Positions 15,186 through 60,160 of a stretch of DNA of 64,000 nucleotides are shown here, in pieces; position 1 is the first letter of the stretch; each line of letters begins with the position of its first letter. Below the pieces are notes generated by a model, which saw only the letters and a list, made by a program, of their open reading frames with translations, did not search any database and was not told the DNA's origin. The translations under genes were made by a program, and so were the position numbers. The stretch is from Terriglobia bacterium (GTDB lineage Bacteria; Acidobacteriota; Terriglobia; 2-12-FULL-54-10): assembly GCA_963666975.2 (NCBI GenBank), contig CAXVYR010000004.1:1152001-1216000 (forward strand). Reading direction: 5' to 3'.

Positions 15186-15686
15186 ATGGCGCGCATGATC
15201 GATCCATTGCTGGCGGAGATGGAGCAGGAAGCCGAGACGACCAAGCGGGTGCTCGAAAGGGTTCCGAACGACAAGCTAAGCTGGAAGCCTCACCCGAAGT
15301 CGATGTCGCTGGGCCAACTGGCCCTGCACGTCGCCACGATTCCGGGTTCCGTCTCAGAACTTCTCGCCGAGGACGTTTTTGAGTTTCCTGAACGCACGCA
15401 GCCTGCGGCCAACTCTGCTGCCGAACTGATCCCGGCGCTGGAGGAAAGTATTAAAACCGCCAAACGGGTGGCGGGCGGCTTCGACGACAAAAAAGCCATG
15501 GGGACATGGAAGCTGGTGAAGGACGGCAAAGAGATCATAGCGGCGCCGCGCATCGCGCTGCTCAGGTCCTTTATGCTGAACCATTGGTTCCACCACCGGG
15601 GCCAGCTTTCGGTTTACCTGCGCTTGCTCGATGTTCCTGTGCCTTCGATCTACGGCCCGAGCGCCGATGAAAATCCGTTTGAGTAG
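15186..15686 (+). CDS. DinB family protein
   Basis: WKPHPKSMSLGQLALH and NHWFHHRGQLSVYLRLL..PSIYGPSADE motifs; AAGGAG RBS. Confidence 0.92.
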   Translation: MARMIDPLLAEMEQEAETTKRVLERVPNDKLSWKPHPKSMSLGQLALHVATIPGSVSELLAEDVFEFPERTQPAANSAAELIPALEESIKTAKRVAGGFDDKKAMGTWKLVKDGKEIIAAPRIALLRSFMLNHWFHHRGQLSVYLRLLDVPVPSIYGPSADENPFE

Positions 15687-15790
15687 AAGGCAGGAGACAG
15701 AAGCCAGCAGTCAGAAATCAGAAGAAAACATGGTTACTGCCTGAATGCTTTTCTCTCGATGTCGAAAGCTGATGTTGGAAGTTAACGTTC

Positions 15791-15807
15791 GCGGCTGACC
15801 AGCCGCC
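15791..15807 (-). promoter_or_regulatory. Candidate bacterial SECIS element
   Basis: UGA + 11 nt + GGCGGCU-GGUC-AGCCGC hairpin; same spacing and loop as E. coli fdhF SECIS. Confidence 0.7.
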
Positions 15808-15809
15808 TT

Positions 15810-15998
15810 CTACCGCGCTCAGGTAAACCGACTGGAAGCCGATGTCCCGCATCCGCCGGTGGAAAAGGCCGAAAGCATCCGCTCGACCTCCTCAGAGTTG
15901 CATCCAGGGCAATTCATCTCCCTGTCGGCATCCTGCATCCGGCGCAACTTTTCAAAGCTGGTGCCGCAGCAACGGCACTGGTATTCATAGAGTGGCAT
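15810..15998 (-). CDS. FmdB-family zinc-ribbon protein, candidate C-terminal selenocysteine (59 aa to TGA at 15819-15821; 62 aa if read through to TAG)
   Basis: Hand translation, absent from ORF track: MPLYEYQCRCCGTSFEKL...CPGC...SAFSTGGCGTSASSRFT-TGA-GCG-CGG-TAG; TATAAT 6 nt before ATG (leaderless). Confidence 0.88.
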
Positions 15999-16322
15999 AC
16001 TTTAATTATAATACAAAGACGGGAAATCTGAGCCGCCATAACGCTGGCGTGATACACATAGCGGCTACCTTCATCGCCACCCGGGCAAACGGCAGGAGTC
16101 CGACCTCATGCGTTTTCCCTCCTGCCTCTCTGGCAAACACTATCATCGCTTCTCTGTCCTTACCTATTGCAACAACGTATCGAGGATGTCAACAGAGCCA
16201 CACAGACTCTACAGTCCCGCTCCTTCCCTGGATGCCCAATAAGCCGCCTGAAGTTCATTCTGGCACTCTGTCATAAGTTTATCGTCGGGAGGAGCATTGC
16301 GGCCGAATTCAGACAAAAGCTG

Positions 16323-45773: not shown

Positions 45774-48038
45774 TTAGAAAATTTCCGGGAAATAATACGT
45801 CATCACGGCATTGAGATACTTGTCCGAGACGATGACGGTCTTGTTCTTGGCGTCAAAAGTCACCCCGCGCGGCTGGCGCAACATCCCCTTTGGCCCTCCA
45901 ATCTTCCACCGCGGCGGAACGTCCCCGTTGTCCTCGAGGATGCTCCATACGCCCACAAAGGCCTCATTGGACGAAAGTCTTTCGCCCGGCCCGGACCCCG
46001 GACCCGGGACAGCCGCCAGGACCAAGCCACGGGGCGGATAGACCTGGATTCGCTGCGTTCGTGTGATACCTGTCTTGGGGCCGCTGATCACAGCTTTCGG
46101 TTTCACGTTACCCTCGTCGGTGCGGTTAAAAATCATCAGACCCCTTCTGCTGTCTCCTCCTTCCTCCCAGCTCGCCGACACGACAAGCAAGTTGTGGACC
46201 GGGTCCACGGCGACCTCGGTGGGACTCCACGGCGTGCCGGGGCCCTCCAGGATCCGGACCGGCGCTGCATTTCCATTTGCCTCCCGCGCAAAAACCAGGA
46301 CCCGGCTTGCCCCTCCCGCCTCAGGAACGAAAATCTCGTTGTGCACCGGATCGACCGTCACCTTGTCGGGATTCCTTAACAGCGTGCGGAGCCCCTGGAT
46401 TACCCGGATCGGGGACTCCTCCCCATCGGCTCCTCCACGGAACGTCATCACCGACTGGGAGAACGGCTGCGGCACCGTGATTTCATCATGGATCTCATCG
46501 TAGAAAATGCCGTGCATCGTCCGGCCCAACATTGTTTTTTGTCCCTCAATCTTCCGGTTCGCTGTGGCTCCCCCTTCCGCCAGCCTGGCGAAAGCCGCAA
46601 TCTGCGGGTGGGCCACTCAGTTGGGCACCAGTATCTCTGCCCGCTTGGTGTCATAGGTTACAGCGCCCGGATTGCCAATCATCAAAGACGGCTCGCCAAT
46701 CGGCGCGCTGCGGATCGTGCGCAGAGGCGGCGTGTCGCCCTCCGCTGTGGGTTTATAGACGGTCGCCGAGTGATTGCCGAAGTTGGCCACCCACAGCTCG
46801 TCATTCTTAGTGTCCAAAAACAGGCCCGTGGGATTTTTGATGCCGCTGTTGGGGCCTTTCAACACCCGAATGGGAGCCACGTCACCATTGGCAGTCGCGC
46901 GGAAGACCAGGACGGAATCTCCCTGGTCATTGGCAACAAACAGTTCCCCTCGCTCCGGGTCAACGGCAATTCCCGCCGCCCAGTTCAATTGGGTCCGGGA
47001 ACCTTCGATCACCCGCAACGGAGCAGCATTCCCGCTCGCGGTCCGGGAGTACACCGTGATCGAAGGCGGCACCGTCGTGCCCGAACCGGGGATCGCTACG
47101 TCCTCGCCCTTCGGCCAATTCGCTTTCCCTTTGGCTCTTCCGAGAGTTCCCTCCCCGTCGGCGTCCGCGCGATGTTGCCGGACCGAGCCGTGATTGGTGA
47201 CGTAGATGAGATTATTCTTCGTATCCACGGCAATGCCGTGGGGGTCCGCCAGGCGAGTGCGATCTCCCTGAAGCAGGCGGATGGGGGCATCGTCGCCTTC
47301 GGCCATCTTGTTGTATACCACCACCGCGTTGTCGTGCTGGATGGTGAGGAAAAGCTCCTCCCGCTGTTCATCCACCGTAATGCCAAAAGTCCCGTGCGGC
47401 GTGGCCAGCTGCCGCGTCGGAGGCACGTCCCCGTTGGCCTGGCGGTCAAAAATCACCAGTGTGTCCACCGTGTCGTTGTTGACGGCGTATATATCCCCGC
47501 TGGCCGGGTCAATATACAGGCCGCACTGAAATTCGATTCTCGTGTGTTCTCCCCCGATCTTGCGCTTTGGTTCGGTCATGGCCGCGTTGGGGGGCGTATT
47601 GTCCAGCCGGTCGTAGACCATAATGTTGAAGAAGCTTTCGTCCGTCATGACAACTTCCCCGCGCACCGGGTCCACCGCAACAGCGCTGTAGGAGGAATAG
47701 GGATCCCGAATGACCCGAAGCGGCGCTCTCGGGGCGGTTTCCTCGCCGCTGTTCTGAGCGACAGTCCGTGCCCCGCTGCCAGCGGAAAGCCTTTCCTGCC
47801 GCATGGCGGCCAGCAGCGTAGTGCCGGTGCTGGCGGGCACCCACTCGCACATTACCCCGTCCATCGCCGGCAAAGGCTCCACGGAGATCAGTTGAGGAGA
47901 CCCAGTAGGCCTCCGAGCCAAGACCGACAGCCTTTCGCCGGTGACCCCGCTGGATAGCACGAATCCGGCAAGAGTCCCGGTCACTGCGAGAATTGCAATC
48001 AGCAATGCCTTCCGTCGCAAATAAGATGCTTGCGCCAT
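45774..48038 (-). CDS. Exported multi-blade beta-propeller (NHL/lactonase-like) with in-frame TGA at 46617-46619; candidate 754-aa selenoprotein
   Basis: ORFs 46617-48038 and 45774-46616 are in the same frame with zero gap; repeat register continues across EILVPN*VAHPQIAAF; AGGAGGAGG RBS at first ATG, none at the GTG. Confidence 0.8.
46564..46616 (-). promoter_or_regulatory. Candidate SECIS-like structure immediately 3' of the in-frame UGA
   Basis: GUGGC...GCCAC basal stem enclosing CCGCA-GAU-UGCGG and CUUUCGCCA-GGC-UGGCGGAAG hairpins. Confidence 0.5.
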
Positions 48039-48145: not shown

Positions 48146-49594
48146 GAGGGTGTCCCATACATAGTTGAAGGTTGAACGGCGGTTCGGCCCGAATCGAATA
48201 GAATCGGGCCAAGCCTAAATCCTATAGAAGGAGAACCGCCGAATGAAGGGAAAATATCACGTTTTGGAACTGGGTTCCAAGGGAGCCGAAGAAACCATCC
48301 AGAAGTTTTGCCAAACCAACGGACAGATGCTGTTGCCGGTGGTGGATCTGATCACGGAGGCGCGTCTGGCGGTGGATGAGGTGATTGATCGGGCCGGGCG
48401 AGGTTTGATTGAAACGATTCTGAGCATGAGCGCAGAGCAAATCGCGGGGCCAAAGAGTCCCGGGAAGGCGAGCGGAGAGGTGCGCTGGCATGGCCGGCAA
48501 TTGGGGAGGGTGAAACTGGCCGATCGCCAGCTGCGGGTGGAGCGGCCCCGGCTGCGCCGGAAGGGCGGAGGGGAAGAAGCGGTGCCGGCCTACGAAGCAC
48601 TGCGGAAAAGCGAGAAGACGGGCGAGGAGATGTTCGAGGCACTGTTGAAAGGGGTTTCGACGCGGAACTACCGCGAGGTGATCCCGGAGATGGCCAACAG
48701 CGCTGGGGTGTCGAAGTCTCAGGTGAGCCGGGAAGCGGCCGAGCAAGGAGCGCGGCGGCTGGAAGAACTGTTGGCGCGGCGCTGGGAGGAGGTCGAGATT
48801 CTGGTGATTTACCTGGACGGAATGCGGTTCGGCTCCCACCACGTCATCAGCGCCGTGGGCGTGGACAGCGAGGGCCGCAAGCATGTGCTGGGGATTCAAC
48901 TGGGCGCGACCGAAAACGCCGCTGCGGTGAAAGACCTTCTCACCCGCCTGCGCCAGCAAGGTTTGCGCACGGATCAGCGCTATCTGTTTGTGATCGACGG
49001 CGCCAAAGCGCTCCGCGCGGGGATCGAGGAAGTATTCGGCAGCAATCAGCTGGTGCAGCGTTGCCGTACTCATAAGCTGCGCAACGTGGCTGAGCGGTTA
49101 CCAAAGGGCGACAAAATGCTGGCGAATCAGGTGCGGTCGCTGATGCGCGCCGCCTGGCGATTGCCCCAAGCCGAGGAAGGCATCGTGCGCATAAAAAAGC
49201 TCGCTGGGATGATCGAGTGCGATCATCCGGCAGCAGCCGCCAGCTTGCGCGAAGGGTTGGAGGAGACCTTTACGATCAATCGAGCCGACGTTCCTCCCAG
49301 CCTCCACCGCTGCCTGGCAACCACGAACCTCATCGAGAGCCCGCAGTCGGGCGTGCGGAAAAAGACTGGCAATGTTTGCCGCTGGCGCGACGGCGAGATG
49401 ACGTTGCGCTGGGTGGCAGGAGCGTTTCTGCTGACCGAGAAGAATTTCCGGAAGATCATGGGTTATCACGATCTCTGGGCTTTGGCATCGATTCTCGGCC
49501 GAAGTCCAAACGCTGCTTCCTCTCACAAGGAGGAAGTGGCGTAATATGAACTCAACCCGCCGTCCCAACCTGCAACTGAGTTTGGGACACCTTC
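48146..49594 (+). mobile_element. IS256-family element, copy 1 (1449 bp)
   Basis: TIRs GAGGGTGTCCCATAC/GAAGGTGTCCCAAAC; 8-bp TSD CCCGCGCG at 48138-48145 and 49595-49602. Confidence 0.95.
48243..49544 (+). CDS. IS256-family transposase
   Basis: GVSTRNY, IYLDG, VIDGAKAL, QRCRTHK and TTNLIES motifs. Confidence 0.95.
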   Translation: MKGKYHVLELGSKGAEETIQKFCQTNGQMLLPVVDLITEARLAVDEVIDRAGRGLIETILSMSAEQIAGPKSPGKASGEVRWHGRQLGRVKLADRQLRVERPRLRRKGGGEEAVPAYEALRKSEKTGEEMFEALLKGVSTRNYREVIPEMANSAGVSKSQVSREAAEQGARRLEELLARRWEEVEILVIYLDGMRFGSHHVISAVGVDSEGRKHVLGIQLGATENAAAVKDLLTRLRQQGLRTDQRYLFVIDGAKALRAGIEEVFGSNQLVQRCRTHKLRNVAERLPKGDKMLANQVRSLMRAAWRLPQAEEGIVRIKKLAGMIECDHPAAAASLREGLEETFTINRADVPPSLHRCLATTNLIESPQSGVRKKTGNVCRWRDGEMTLRWVAGAFLLTEKNFRKIMGYHDLWALASILGRSPNAASSHKEEVA

Positions 49595-49723: not shown

Positions 49724-51053
49724 CACTGCTGTCCGGCTAAAATTTCAGAACAGCCAACAAGTCTCATGAGAGCAAAAGGTTACGGGCATTGGAGCATTTT
49801 TCGATTTGAAATCCGCGAGGGCGAAAAATGGCTTTGAACGTAAAGACTGGGGTAGGCGACAGAAGAGTGCATGAACATCGGTCGCACCGTTTTCGCTCAG
49901 CTTATGGATCACGTGCCCTCGTACGAGTTTCACAAATGCGTCACGCGCTACCGTGGCGACGATCATCTGCGAAGCTTTTCTTGCTGGGACCAGTTTCTGG
50001 CGATGGCGTTCGCTCAGTTGACTTACCGCGAGAGTCTCCGCGACATCGAGGCGTGTCTGCGTTCCATGACCAGCAAACTCTACCACATCGGATTGCGCGG
50101 CAACGTGGCGCGCTCGACACTGGCCGATGCCAACGAGTCGCACGACTGGCGCATCTACGCGGACTTCGCCCAGGTGTTGATCGGCATCGCACGGCCTTTG
50201 TATGCGCGCGATCCGATCGGCGTCGATCTGGATCAGAGCCTGTACGCGCTGGACTCCACCACCATCGACCTCTGCCTCTCGCTGTTTCCGTGGGCACGAT
50301 TCCGCCAACACAAGGCTGCCGTCAAACTGCATACGCTGCTGGACCTGCATGGCAACATCCCCACGTTTCTCCGCGTCACGGCCGGTGCCGTGCACGATGT
50401 CAACATCCTCGACGAGATCGTTCCGGAAGCGGGCGCGTTCTACGTGATGGATCGCGGCTACATCGACTTCGAGCGACTCTTTGTCTTCACACTCTGCTCC
50501 GCATTTTTCGTCGTGCGGACGAAAGAGAACGTCTTGCTCCAACGCCGCTATTCTCATCCAGCAGACAGAACCAGCGGCTTGCGATCCGATCATACCGTGA
50601 TCCTGACCGGGAACGCCTCGGCCAGGGCATACCCCGATCCGCTACGGCGCGTTACGTACTTCGATGCAGAAACAAACAAGCGCCTGAAGTTTCTTACCAA
50701 CAATTTCGTGCTACCCGCACTCACTATCGCTCAAATCTACAAGTGCCGCTGGCAGGTGGAACTGTTCTTCAAATGGATCAAGCAGCACCTGCGAATCAAG
50801 GCATTCTATGGCACCAGCCAAAACGCCGTGAAGACTCAAATCTGGATCGCCGTTTCGATCTATGTACTCGTGGCCATTGTCCGGAAGCGTCTCGGTTTGG
50901 AAGCCAGCCTTTACCAAATTTTACAGATTCTCAGTGTTACTCTTTTCGAGAAAGTACCCATTTTACAGGCCTTGGAAGCATCGGGCTCCCCAGACGATTT
51001 AGTCAGAAATCCCAACCAGTTGATTCTGTTCGAGTTTTAACCGGACAGCAATG
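49724..51053 (+). mobile_element. IS4-family element (1330 bp)
   Basis: TIRs CACTGCTGTCCGGCTAAAA/CATTGCTGTCCGGTTAAAA; 9-bp TSD ATATTATGT at 49715-49723 and 51054-51062. Confidence 0.95.
49871..51040 (+). CDS. IS4-family transposase (DUF4372 N-terminus)
   Basis: ALDSTTIDL, VMDRGY, YKCRWQVELFFKWIKQHL (YREK). Confidence 0.95.
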   Translation: MNIGRTVFAQLMDHVPSYEFHKCVTRYRGDDHLRSFSCWDQFLAMAFAQLTYRESLRDIEACLRSMTSKLYHIGLRGNVARSTLADANESHDWRIYADFAQVLIGIARPLYARDPIGVDLDQSLYALDSTTIDLCLSLFPWARFRQHKAAVKLHTLLDLHGNIPTFLRVTAGAVHDVNILDEIVPEAGAFYVMDRGYIDFERLFVFTLCSAFFVVRTKENVLLQRRYSHPADRTSGLRSDHTVILTGNASARAYPDPLRRVTYFDAETNKRLKFLTNNFVLPALTIAQIYKCRWQVELFFKWIKQHLRIKAFYGTSQNAVKTQIWIAVSIYVLVAIVRKRLGLEASLYQILQILSVTLFEKVPILQALEASGSPDDLVRNPNQLILFEF

Positions 51054-51323: not shown

Positions 51324-52860
51324 GAAGGTGTCCCAAACTCAGTTGCAGGTTGGGACGGCGGGTTGAGTTCATATTACGCCACTTTCTCCTTGTGAGAGGA
51401 AGCAGCGTTTGGACTTCGGCCGAGAATCGATGCCAAAGCCCAGAGATCGTGATAACCCATGATCTTCCGGAAATTCTTCTCGGTCAGCAGAAACGCTCCT
51501 GCCACCCAGCGCAACGTCTCGCCGTCGCGCCAGCGGCAAACATTGCCAGTCTTTTTCCGCACGCCCGACTGCGGGCTCTCGATGAGGTTCGTGGTTGCCA
51601 GGCCTCATCTCGCCGTCGCGCCAGCGGCAAACATTGCCAGTCTTTTTCCGCACGCCCGACTGCGGGCTCTCGATGAGGTTCGTGGTTGCCAGGCAGCGGT
51701 GGAGGCTGGGAGGAACGTCGGCTCGATTGATCGTAAAGGTCTCCTCCAACCCTTCGCGCAAGCTGGCGGCTGCTGCCGGATGATCGCACTCGATCATCCC
51801 AGCGAGCTTTTTTATGCGCACGATGCCTTCCTCGGCTTGGGGCAATCGCCAGGCGGCGCGCATCAGCGACCGCACCTGATTCGCCAGCATTTTGTCGCCC
51901 TTTGGTAACCGCTCAGCCACGTTGCGCAGCTTATGAGTACGGCAACGCTGCACCAGCTGATTGCTGCCGAATACTTCCTCGATCCCCGCGCGGAGCGCTT
52001 TGGCGCCGTCGATCACAAACAGATAGCGCTGATCCGTGCGCAAACCTTGCTGGCGCAGGCGGGTGAGAAGGTCTTTCACCGCAGCGGCGTTTTCGGTCGC
52101 GCCCAGTTGAATCCCCAGCACATGCTTGCGGCCCTCGATGTCCACGCCCACGGCGCTGATGACGTGGTGGGAGCCGAACCGCATTCCGTCCAGGTAAATC
52201 ACCAGAATCTCGACCTCCTCCCAGCGCCGCGCCAACAGTTCTTCCAGCCGCCGCGCTCCTTGCTCGGCCGCTTCCCGGCTCACCTGAGACTTCGACACCC
52301 CAGCGCTGTTGGCCATCTCCGGGATCACCTCGCGGTAGTTCCGCGTCGAAACCCCTTTCAACAGTGCCTCGAACATCTCCTCGCCCGTCTTCTCGCTTTT
52401 CCGCAGTGCTTCGTAGGCCGGCACCGCTTCTTCCCCTCCGCCCTTCCGGCGCAGCCGGGGCCGCTCCACCCGCAGCTGGCGATCGGCCAGTTTCACCCTC
52501 CCCAATTGCCGGCCATGCCAGCGCACCTCTCCGCTCGCCTTCCCGGGACTCTTTGGCCCCGCGATTTGCTCTGCGCTCATGCTCAGAATCGTTTCAATCA
52601 AACCTCGCCCGGCCCGATCAATCACCTCATCCACCGCCAGACGCGCCTCCGTGATCAGATCCACCACCGGCAACAGCATCTGTCCGTTGGTTTGGCAAAA
52701 CTTCTGGATGGTTTCTTCGGCTCCCTTGGAACCCAGTTCCAAAACGTGATATTTTCCCTTCATTCGGCGGTTCTCCTTCTATAGGATTTAGGCTTGGCCC
52801 GATTCTATTCGATTCGGGCCGAACCGCCGTTCAACCTTCAACTATGTATGGGACACCCTC
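51324..52860 (-). mobile_element. IS256-family element, copy 2 (1537 bp, with 88-bp internal duplication)
   Basis: Same TIRs as copy 1; 8-bp TSD CCTAAAGG at 51316-51323 and 52861-52868. Confidence 0.95.
51369..52763 (-). pseudogene. IS256 transposase with frameshifted C-terminus
   Basis: Near-identical to copy 1 up to WRDGEM; 88-bp duplication at 51517-51604 shifts the frame. Confidence 0.85.
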
Positions 52861-59611: not shown

Positions 59612-60160
59612 TCATTTACGACCCCGCAGGAGGTCATCGAATTCTTTCTCGAACTTCTCCACCTTGGGATTGATTACAAATCGGCAATAAGGCTGCTCAA
59701 AATTGTTTTTGTAGTATTCCCGATGGTATGGTTCAGCCGGGTAGAAATGTTCTAGCGGGTTTACTTCCGTTACGATGGGATTGGAAAAGGCATGTGATTC
59801 TTGGAGGCCGTCGATGAAAGCCTCGGCTTCGCGCCTTTGATCTTCATTGGCATAGAGAATGATGGACCGATACTGCGTGCCCTGATCATGGTCCTGCCGA
59901 TTCAGGGTTGTCGGGTCATGAGTGCCAAAAAACACTGCCAGGAGGCTTCTGTAGGAGATCTGCGACGGGTCAAACTCAACTTGAATTACCTCCGCATGCC
60001 CCGTGTCGCCGCTACAGACCGGCTGATAGGTCGGATCAGCCGTGCGACCGCCCGCGTATCCCGGCAGAACGGATGTGACCCCCTGTAACCGCTCGAATAC
60101 CGCCTCAATGCACCAGAAGCATCCGCCTCCAAACACAGCTGACTGTATATCCTGCGTCAT
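59612..60160 (-). CDS. msrA: Peptide methionine sulfoxide reductase A
   Basis: GGGCFWC, GHAEV, HDPTTLNRQ, QYRS, AE.YH..YY. Confidence 0.96.
   Translation of the reverse strand: MTQDIQSAVFGGGCFWCIEAVFERLQGVTSVLPGYAGGRTADPTYQPVCSGDTGHAEVIQVEFDPSQISYRSLLAVFFGTHDPTTLNRQDHDQGTQYRSIILYANEDQRREAEAFIDGLQESHAFSNPIVTEVNPLEHFYPAEPYHREYYKNNFEQPYCRFVINPKVEKFEKEFDDLLRGRK

Follow-up and report, generated by a model that had tools for sequence, protein, structure and literature searches.

FmdB-family proteins are small, running for about 50 residues from the initiator Met through two CxxC motifs some 17-19 residues apart into a degenerate, low-complexity tail. The selenoproteins published from this family carry selenocysteine (Sec, U) within the zinc ribbon, as CxxU, according to the passages of PMC2398784 that treat them, where two Global Ocean Sampling (GOS) reads stand beside 807 Cys homologues, and the entries for the family in two reviews give the motif as U/CxxU or UxxU. 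Here we analysed a stretch of 64,000 nucleotides from a Terriglobia bacterium of the Acidobacteriota (contig CAXVYR010000004.1, positions 1,152,001 to 1,216,000; the whole stretch is hereafter called the window), in which an FmdB-type zinc-ribbon gene on the reverse strand very likely encodes a selenoprotein of another design, ending FT-U-A-R and served by a selenocysteine insertion sequence (SECIS) in the 3' untranslated region (3' UTR). Judging from its relatives, this gene very probably represents a large, multi-phylum set of genes that are annotated as truncated.

The window protein shares with the GOS selenoproteins the zinc ribbon with two CxxC motifs and the prediction of Sec insertion through a bacterial SECIS, but all four of its ribbon positions are ordinary Cys, and the putative Sec lies in the tail, third from the C-terminus, without a direct Cys orthologue. 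An earlier note on this DNA had referred to FmdB proteins predicted as selenoproteins elsewhere; that precedent is in print, at the level of the family only, because its Sec sits in the ribbon CxxC and not in the tail. In its position third from the C-terminus (U-A-R-stop), the putative Sec resembles that of the C-terminal UXX-star selenoprotein families, which are listed in a review table and as NCBIfam NF041211 and its kin. No UXX-star model matched the window protein at E<=10 with U read as C, where only TIGR02605 and generic zinc-finger models were returned; none matched six further members at E<=10, and none appeared among the best 25 of 82 families for 49 members. Sec placed only 2-3 residues before the stop leaves the SECIS no place but downstream of the true stop codon.

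Mammalian thioredoxin reductase (TrxR), which ends in Gly-Cys-Sec-Gly, has been expressed in E. coli with an engineered SECIS after the stop codon. Like TrxR, the window protein would carry a redox-active Sec near its C-terminus, on a flexible tail with a nearby Cys, and the SECIS proposed here would likewise stand behind the stop; unlike in TrxR, the Cys is 10 residues away from the Sec instead of adjacent, fold and host are unrelated, and the arrangement would be natural and bacterial, not engineered. The minimal SECIS of E. coli fdhF is said to have been defined by Liu et al. in 1998 as 17 nt located 11 nt after UGA, and the bulged U in its 5' arm is a SelB determinant. PMC10945757 gives the sequence of this minimal element in its Methods. 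The window hairpin has the same GGUC apical loop, a similarly short G+C-rich stem and the same 11-nt spacer, but it lies untranslated in the 3' UTR, outside the reading frame; the earlier description of it as fdhF-like holds for loop and spacing and fails for the bulged U, which is absent from a 6-bp stem with an unpaired 5' G. In the literature searched, including the passages on deep-Sep and BSepDB, no C-terminal-Sec form of FmdB was found; Haft & Tolstoy 2025 lay outside that search. The name FmdB in PMC11227280 refers to an unrelated protein, subunit B of formylmethanofuran dehydrogenase.

Anatomy of the gene and its hairpin

Read with the standard code, the open reading frame (ORF; 15998..15819, reverse strand, as are all features of this gene) comprises 59 codons up to TGA and gives the 59-aa protein MPLYEYQCRCCGTSFEKLRRMQDADREMNCPGCNSEEVERMLSAFSTGGCGTSASSRFT, whereas the full proposed coding sequence (15810..15998) would have 62 sense codons, with Sec as codon 60, followed by UAG as the true stop. 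The tail after the C30xxC33 ribbon is GGCGTSASSRFT, and at its end the in-frame order is TGA (15819..15821, proposed to encode Sec as residue 60), GCG for Ala and CGG for Arg (together 15813..15818) and TAG (15810..15812, the proposed real stop). Residues 1-41 (15876..15998) form the zinc-ribbon core, which matches Pfam PF09723 (Zn_ribbon_8, FmdB family) with 52.8 bits against a cut-off of 34.4 (E 4e-14); the protein also matches TIGR02605 (FmdB family) with 61.4 bits against 31.3 (E 6e-17). The protein fits the family layout, with Met1, C8xxC11, C30xxC33 and then the low-complexity tail; the two CxxC motifs are written with four ordinary Cys codons, and their columns are invariant in the alignment of homologues. 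A further Cys in the tail, Cys50 (codon TGC, 15849..15851), lies 10 residues before the putative Sec and is invariant in 49/49 sequences of alignment A1, and in most F-ending representatives the distance from the last Cys to the putative Sec is 7-11 residues.

The DNA directly downstream holds a bacterial SECIS (bSECIS)-type hairpin (15791..15807), GGCGGCT-GGTC-AGCCGC, with a stem of 6 bp (15806-15801 paired with 15796-15791) around a GGUC loop (15800-15797). The stem is perfect and has no bulged U, the additional 5' G of the 17-mer is unpaired at its base, and the hairpin begins 11 nt, its loop 18 nt, after UGA. Every coordinate and base that the earlier note had given for a 59-codon FmdB-type gene ending UGA-GCG-CGG-UAG was correct, and its 17-mer does stand exactly 11 nt after UGA, with the spacer at 15818-15808 and the hairpin at 15807-15791. 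The bSECIS consensus, as set out in PMC13188914, comprises a loop of 3-9 nt with G in its first two positions (usually G[G/U]), a stem of 4-16 bp, a distance of 16-37 nt from UGA to the loop and an MFE (minimum free energy) of -7.5 kcal/mol or below. The window element conforms to all four rules: its GGUC loop has 4 nt and its stem 6 bp, the loop stands 18 nt from UGA, and it folds at -10.9 kcal/mol.

At the other end of the gene, a TATAAT hexamer stands about 7 nt upstream of the ATG (16000-16020, reverse strand), with no obvious Shine-Dalgarno sequence, which suggests that the mRNA is leaderless or has a very short leader; a promoter scan gave no full -35/-10 match on the reverse strand at this gene.

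Conservation of the UGA codon and of the residues beyond it

Relatives were picked by the N-terminal peptide patterns MPLYEY[RQL]C and FE[KM]LRRM.. only, so that the stop codon had no part in their selection. Eighty loci were taken, from which L038 was excluded as its contig ends inside the gene, so that 79 loci and the window give 80 rows, the relatives spanning several phyla; 163 long ORFs (>=200 aa) from 40 of these loci served as background. Fisher tests across the features compared below gave p values from 1e-6 to 5e-29, a significance that is overstated because the loci were taken as independent though they are related.

All 41 rows with an ORF ending F[TSGRKV] stop at TGA. The remaining 39 rows, which are FmdB loci with other tails, use TGA in 23, TAA in 12 and TAG in four cases, the background ORFs use TGA in 65, TAA in 56 and TAG in 42 of 163 cases (40% TGA), and TGA ends 12 of the 39 ORFs in the window. 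The exclusive use of TGA corresponds to Fisher p values of 2e-14 and 1e-6 with loci treated as independent. Just ahead of the TGA, the codons show synonymous saturation (ACC, ACT, ACA and ACG all occur for Thr, TTT and TTC for Phe), while the TGA itself never switches; this saturation and the spread over several phyla count against the relatedness of the loci as the sole cause. The earlier note had asked whether relatives put TAA or TAG at this codon and keep the hairpin, and none of the 41 same-tail rows uses either.

Beyond the UGA, a second in-frame stop follows after one codon in 10 rows and after two codons in 27, a total of 37/41, compared with 17/163 background ORFs that have one within two codons. 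The residue directly after UGA is Ala in 23 rows and Gly in 14 (37/41), written with seven different codons (GCG/GCC/GCA/GCT and GGG/GGC/GGA), and the Arg at the second position, found in 11 rows of the acidobacterial group, is written with six (CGA, CGG, AGG, CGT, AGA and CGC), including switches between CGN and AGR. Because amino acids are kept through synonymous changes and a stop then follows, which an untranslated spacer would not show, the comparison indicates that translation continues past UGA and that selection acts on the protein downstream of it.

The same ending recurs in protein databases. A protein search returned 48 close homologues, mostly of exactly 59 aa, 47 of which end F[TSGRKV] even where the length of the tail differs, and among the best 150 of 26,083 hidden Markov model (HMM) matches this ending is found in 84 of 146 short proteins. 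On this comparative evidence, an F[TSGRKV] end at the annotated stop is the signature of systematic truncation in the databases. Probably the set with a hidden Sec is wider than the F[TS] tail class. Eight loci with other tails (L015, L021, L023, L026, L032, L053, L067 and L068; tails such as ...SGGG, ...GPVG and ...GTPT) have TGA with a short in-frame extension, most of them also with a hairpin carrying a G-G/U loop, and many database representatives end ...GGG, ...GST or ...PVG.

Conservation of the hairpin

With a filter of at least 5 bp, a loop of 3-5 nt and a start 9-16 nt after the stop, a hairpin was found in 37 of the 41 F[TSGRKV] rows, all 37 with G[G/T] in the loop, in contrast to 7/163 background ORFs (one with a G[G/T] loop) and 2/16 FmdB loci that end in TAA or TAG. 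The loops of the relatives start 16-23 nt after UGA, within the published range of 16-37 nt. The conserved hairpin and the nearby second stop for which the earlier note had proposed to align FmdB homologues are thus each present in 37/41 rows, and its main claim, a product ending FT-U-A-R with a SECIS 11 nt after UGA, agrees with these counts as well as with TGA in 41/41.

Loop types differ by lineage: Acidobacteriota and 'Deltaproteobacteria' have GGUC, Chloroflexota have CGUG(N) and Thermoanaerobaculia-like loci have CGGG(N), a shift that would be expected if the SelB of each lineage reads its own loop. Alignment A5 and the covariance model R1 were built on 14 of the 16 GGUC-loop sequences, L033 and L060 being left out; the MAFFT alignments A3 (48 nt after TGA) and A4 (16 hairpins) were misaligned and were not used. 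In the 14 sequences both sides change in 4/6 stem pairs and 84/84 cells pair, a percentage that is partly built in because the rows came from a pairing-based finder. Searched over 634 kb, R1 gave its seeds at least 24.8 bits and the next best match 21.1, and in the window it found one site only, the zinc-ribbon hairpin, which is the third-best scorer overall. This separation of the seeds from the rest rules out that the hairpin is a dispersed genomic repeat. The best matches of R1 outside FmdB, at 16-21 bits, lie in Nitrospira and Thermoanaerobaculia loci (L043:1920-1941 and L044:1926-1947, both reverse strand, and L056:995-1016) and may be SECIS of other genes or chance matches.

Probable selenocysteine use in the organism

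A second candidate for Sec decoding is found in the same window. A beta-propeller ORF (YncE/lactonase-like; 45774..48038, reverse strand) of 754 codons stays open only when its TGA at 46617-46619 is decoded, and among 120 homologues the corresponding position (ILVPN-C-VAHPQ) is Cys in 85, Trp in one and Arg in one, the other 33 having no match to the search motif. A 9-bp hairpin with a GGC loop follows 31 nt downstream of this TGA. The ORF is probably the propeller candidate mentioned in the earlier note and would, by this alignment, be the second selenoprotein gene of the window. As the note had argued, the two candidates support each other, the in-frame TGA of the propeller standing at a position that is Cys in 85/120 homologues. 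With selA, selB, selC and selD all absent from the window, we infer the Sec trait of the organism indirectly, mainly from this alignment of the propeller TGA with Cys; together, the zinc-ribbon and propeller genes would mark this acidobacterial genome as that of a Sec user. A Solibacter-type domain in another window protein, like the best loci among the relatives, suggests Bryobacterales-like Acidobacteriota. Selenoproteins were counted in Acidobacteria already in 2006, according to the part of PMC1794560 that covers them.

Proposed mechanism and alternative explanations

We propose that the gene encodes a 62-residue selenoprotein composed of an N-terminal four-Cys zinc ribbon and a flexible Gly/Ser-rich tail, ...C50-x9-U60-A-R. 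Once the UGA (15821-15819) occupies the A site, the mRNA channel would be filled by the 11-nt spacer, so that the GGUC hairpin (15807-15791) would stand at the channel entrance, open to binding by SelB.GTP.Sec-tRNA(Sec), and the SelB complex would deliver Sec in competition with RF2. Ala and Arg would then be read and translation would terminate at UAG, which places the entire SECIS downstream of the true stop; if SelB action or selenium were lacking, a product of 59 residues without U-A-R would be released by RF2. The anatomy, the retention of UGA, second stop and hairpin and the protein-level selection beyond UGA are shown by the sequences, while SelB binding, actual Sec insertion and the chemistry of the tail are inferences.

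Several observations weigh against Sec insertion at this codon. The Cys for which the earlier note had suggested examining homologues at the Sec position is missing, as Cys directly after F[TS] occurs in 0/48 close homologues and in 0/146 short proteins among the best 150 of the 26,083 HMM matches. Paralogous FmdB tails are Cys-rich, their last Cys standing 2-7 residues before the C-terminus, and the tail of the L064 paralogue (...GCGCAR) even ends C-A-R, with Cys at -3 as in U-A-R; such low-complexity tails are not reliably alignable. A scan of 50 ORFs and for tRNA genes found no tRNA-Sec and no selA, selB or selD in the 64-kb window, and Rfam SECIS families gave no match, either in the whole window at gathering thresholds or in 15700-15900 at E<=10. 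Simple hairpins that conform to the bSECIS rules follow 103 of the 1697 TGA trinucleotides on both strands of the window (about 6%). Folding of the 42 nt from TGA onward does not exceed that of shuffled sequences (z=0.13), and the MFE structure prefers an alternative pairing of the Ala-Arg codons with the 3' arm. While UGA occupies the A site, the ribosome would cover the first 14 nt; in the 28 nt that start with the hairpin, these 14 nt being removed, the GGUC hairpin is the dominant fold, with 85% of the ensemble at -10.9 kcal/mol, and its z of -1.71 was equalled by 12/200 shuffles. Taken as a single sequence, the hairpin is not beyond chance, and its significance comes from the relatives, four of which (L004, L031, L070 and L072, of 41) fail the strict hairpin filter. 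In Acidimicrobiaceae, an FmdB gene that has a Cys-rich tail but stops at TAA (L045) is followed after 13 nt by a similar hairpin (L045:4180-4201, GCAGCC-CGGGC-GGCTGC), which resembles the SECIS-like hairpin of L046 and may be chance, a relic or a terminator; one such case is about what the background rate of 4% leads one to expect over 16 loci.

The simplest alternative is that UGA is an ordinary stop of a 59-residue protein, as all public annotations have it, and that the hairpin, shared with the convergent DinB-family gene at 15186-15686, either stabilises the RNA or is a terminator lacking a U-tract; the orientation of the two genes makes a 3'-end structure between them plausible. The unremarkable statistics of the window hairpin alone, the TAA-ending L045 and a true terminator-like hairpin at the same distance in L066 are in line with it. 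It leaves unexplained, however, why TGA is used in 41/41 rows and a second stop follows in 37/41, why Ala/Gly and Arg are conserved through synonymous codons, and why the loop keeps G[G/U] at a fixed distance from UGA; moreover, a terminator scan returned zero terminator-like sites, and the Chloroflexota loci have the hairpin within what appears to be an operon, in 11 cases in the short spacer before a co-directional gene. We therefore regard an ordinary stop as very unlikely.

Translation past UGA could also occur without Sec, if the hairpin promotes near-cognate read-through (Trp, Cys or Arg) or slows RF2 and a SelB-independent product of 62 residues results. The comparative data, which speak for translation past UGA, do not identify the inserted residue, and the lack of sel genes in the window fits this explanation. 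Against it, loop, spacing and energy of the hairpin all agree with the bSECIS consensus of the SelB type, the minimal SECIS of E. coli fdhF has the same GGUC loop, the loop types GGUC, CGUG and CGGG vary by phylum as expected for lineage-specific SelB, and the propeller TGA occupies a conserved Cys position, as is typical of Sec, so that we give such read-through a slighter chance still. A SelB-binding regulatory site, or a decaying remnant in an organism that no longer inserts Sec here, would have a parallel in the SECIS-like regulatory element described for the E. coli selAB leader; yet the window copy keeps TGA, Ala-Arg, TAG, the 6-bp stem and the GGUC loop intact and is the third-best scorer of R1, and Sec decoding is required a second time in the window, by the propeller gene, which makes this the least probable of the three.

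Possible function and gene neighbourhood

An AlphaFold model with U read as C (mean pLDDT 70.9) gives a zinc-ribbon core with pLDDT 74-85 and a disordered tail. Foldseek against the PDB returned only generic zinc-ribbon or rubredoxin-like matches with E>=0.03 and thus no functional lead, and the ESM Atlas only clusters named 'FmdB family zinc ribbon'.

A gene for an OsmC-like peroxidase, in which both catalytic Cys are invariant, directly adjoins the FmdB gene on the same strand in 13 of the 48 Sec-type loci, upstream in four Acidobacteriota (L005, L007, L008 and L013) and downstream in nine Chloroflexota (L020, L027, L030, L031, L035, L040, L048, L054 and L077). The OsmC gene of the Chloroflexota is preceded by a gene for a CsoR/RcnR-family repressor (PF02583), which occurs in 11 of the 48 loci, including L070 and L072. 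Neither an OsmC nor a CsoR/RcnR gene was found in the 32 other FmdB loci (p about 0.001-0.002); 10 of the 13 OsmC loci had themselves seeded the search profile, and within each phylum the loci are related to one another. The adjacency in relatives hints at redox chemistry. A complex prediction for the OsmC dimer of L005 with the FmdB protein of L005, in its truncated standard-code form, scored 0.00 and is neutral on binding. The window copy itself has no OsmC or CsoR neighbour; it is surrounded by genes for a HEAT-repeat protein and for DinB, DUF899 and ArsR/AHSA1 proteins, and none of this synteny is conserved among relatives.

As a guess, the tail could be an arm on the zinc-ribbon scaffold that forms a Cys50-Sec60 selenenylsulfide or binds chalcogen or metal. 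A bolder combination of two claims would be that FmdB ribbons ending Cys-x(6-10)-Sec-x(1-2) constitute a large unannotated selenoprotein family with the SECIS wholly in the 3' UTR, present at least in Acidobacteriota, Chloroflexota, Armatimonadota, Myxococcota and 'Deltaproteobacteria', and that their flexible tail is a selenenylsulfide arm, serving OsmC-type peroxidases under CsoR-family control as their dedicated electron relay or as their sensor partner. That both hold together is rather unlikely; if they did, this would be the first mechanistic function for the enigmatic FmdB/COG2331 family.

If UGA is decoded as Sec in these genes, a widespread small selenoprotein is recorded without its selenocysteine in the databases searched, and a reactive residue is placed in the C-terminal tail of a common but functionally obscure family. 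With the reactive residue in the tail, the Cys50/Sec60 pair, the OsmC neighbourhood and the CsoR-type sensor would offer direct tests of FmdB function. The hairpin would also be a natural bacterial SECIS that works from a place beyond the true stop and keeps the textbook spacer of 11 nt. Such a case would help SECIS models as well as programs that look for selenoprotein genes, as these usually count on a SECIS within the coding region and a Cys homologue.

Other features of the window

Two IS256-family transposase genes, 48243-49541 on the forward and 51372-52763 on the reverse strand, lie in inverted orientation on either side of an ORF at 49828-51051 and are near-identical copies, since the same TGA-plus-hairpin contexts recur at 48377 and 52627. 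An MsrA gene lies at 59615-60160 on the reverse strand, the N-terminal part of its product giving a weak NCBIfam match to 'VPGUxxT family thioredoxin-like (seleno)protein, type 2' (E 3.4e-6, below the cut-off), and another protein of the window carries a Solibacter-type C-terminal domain.

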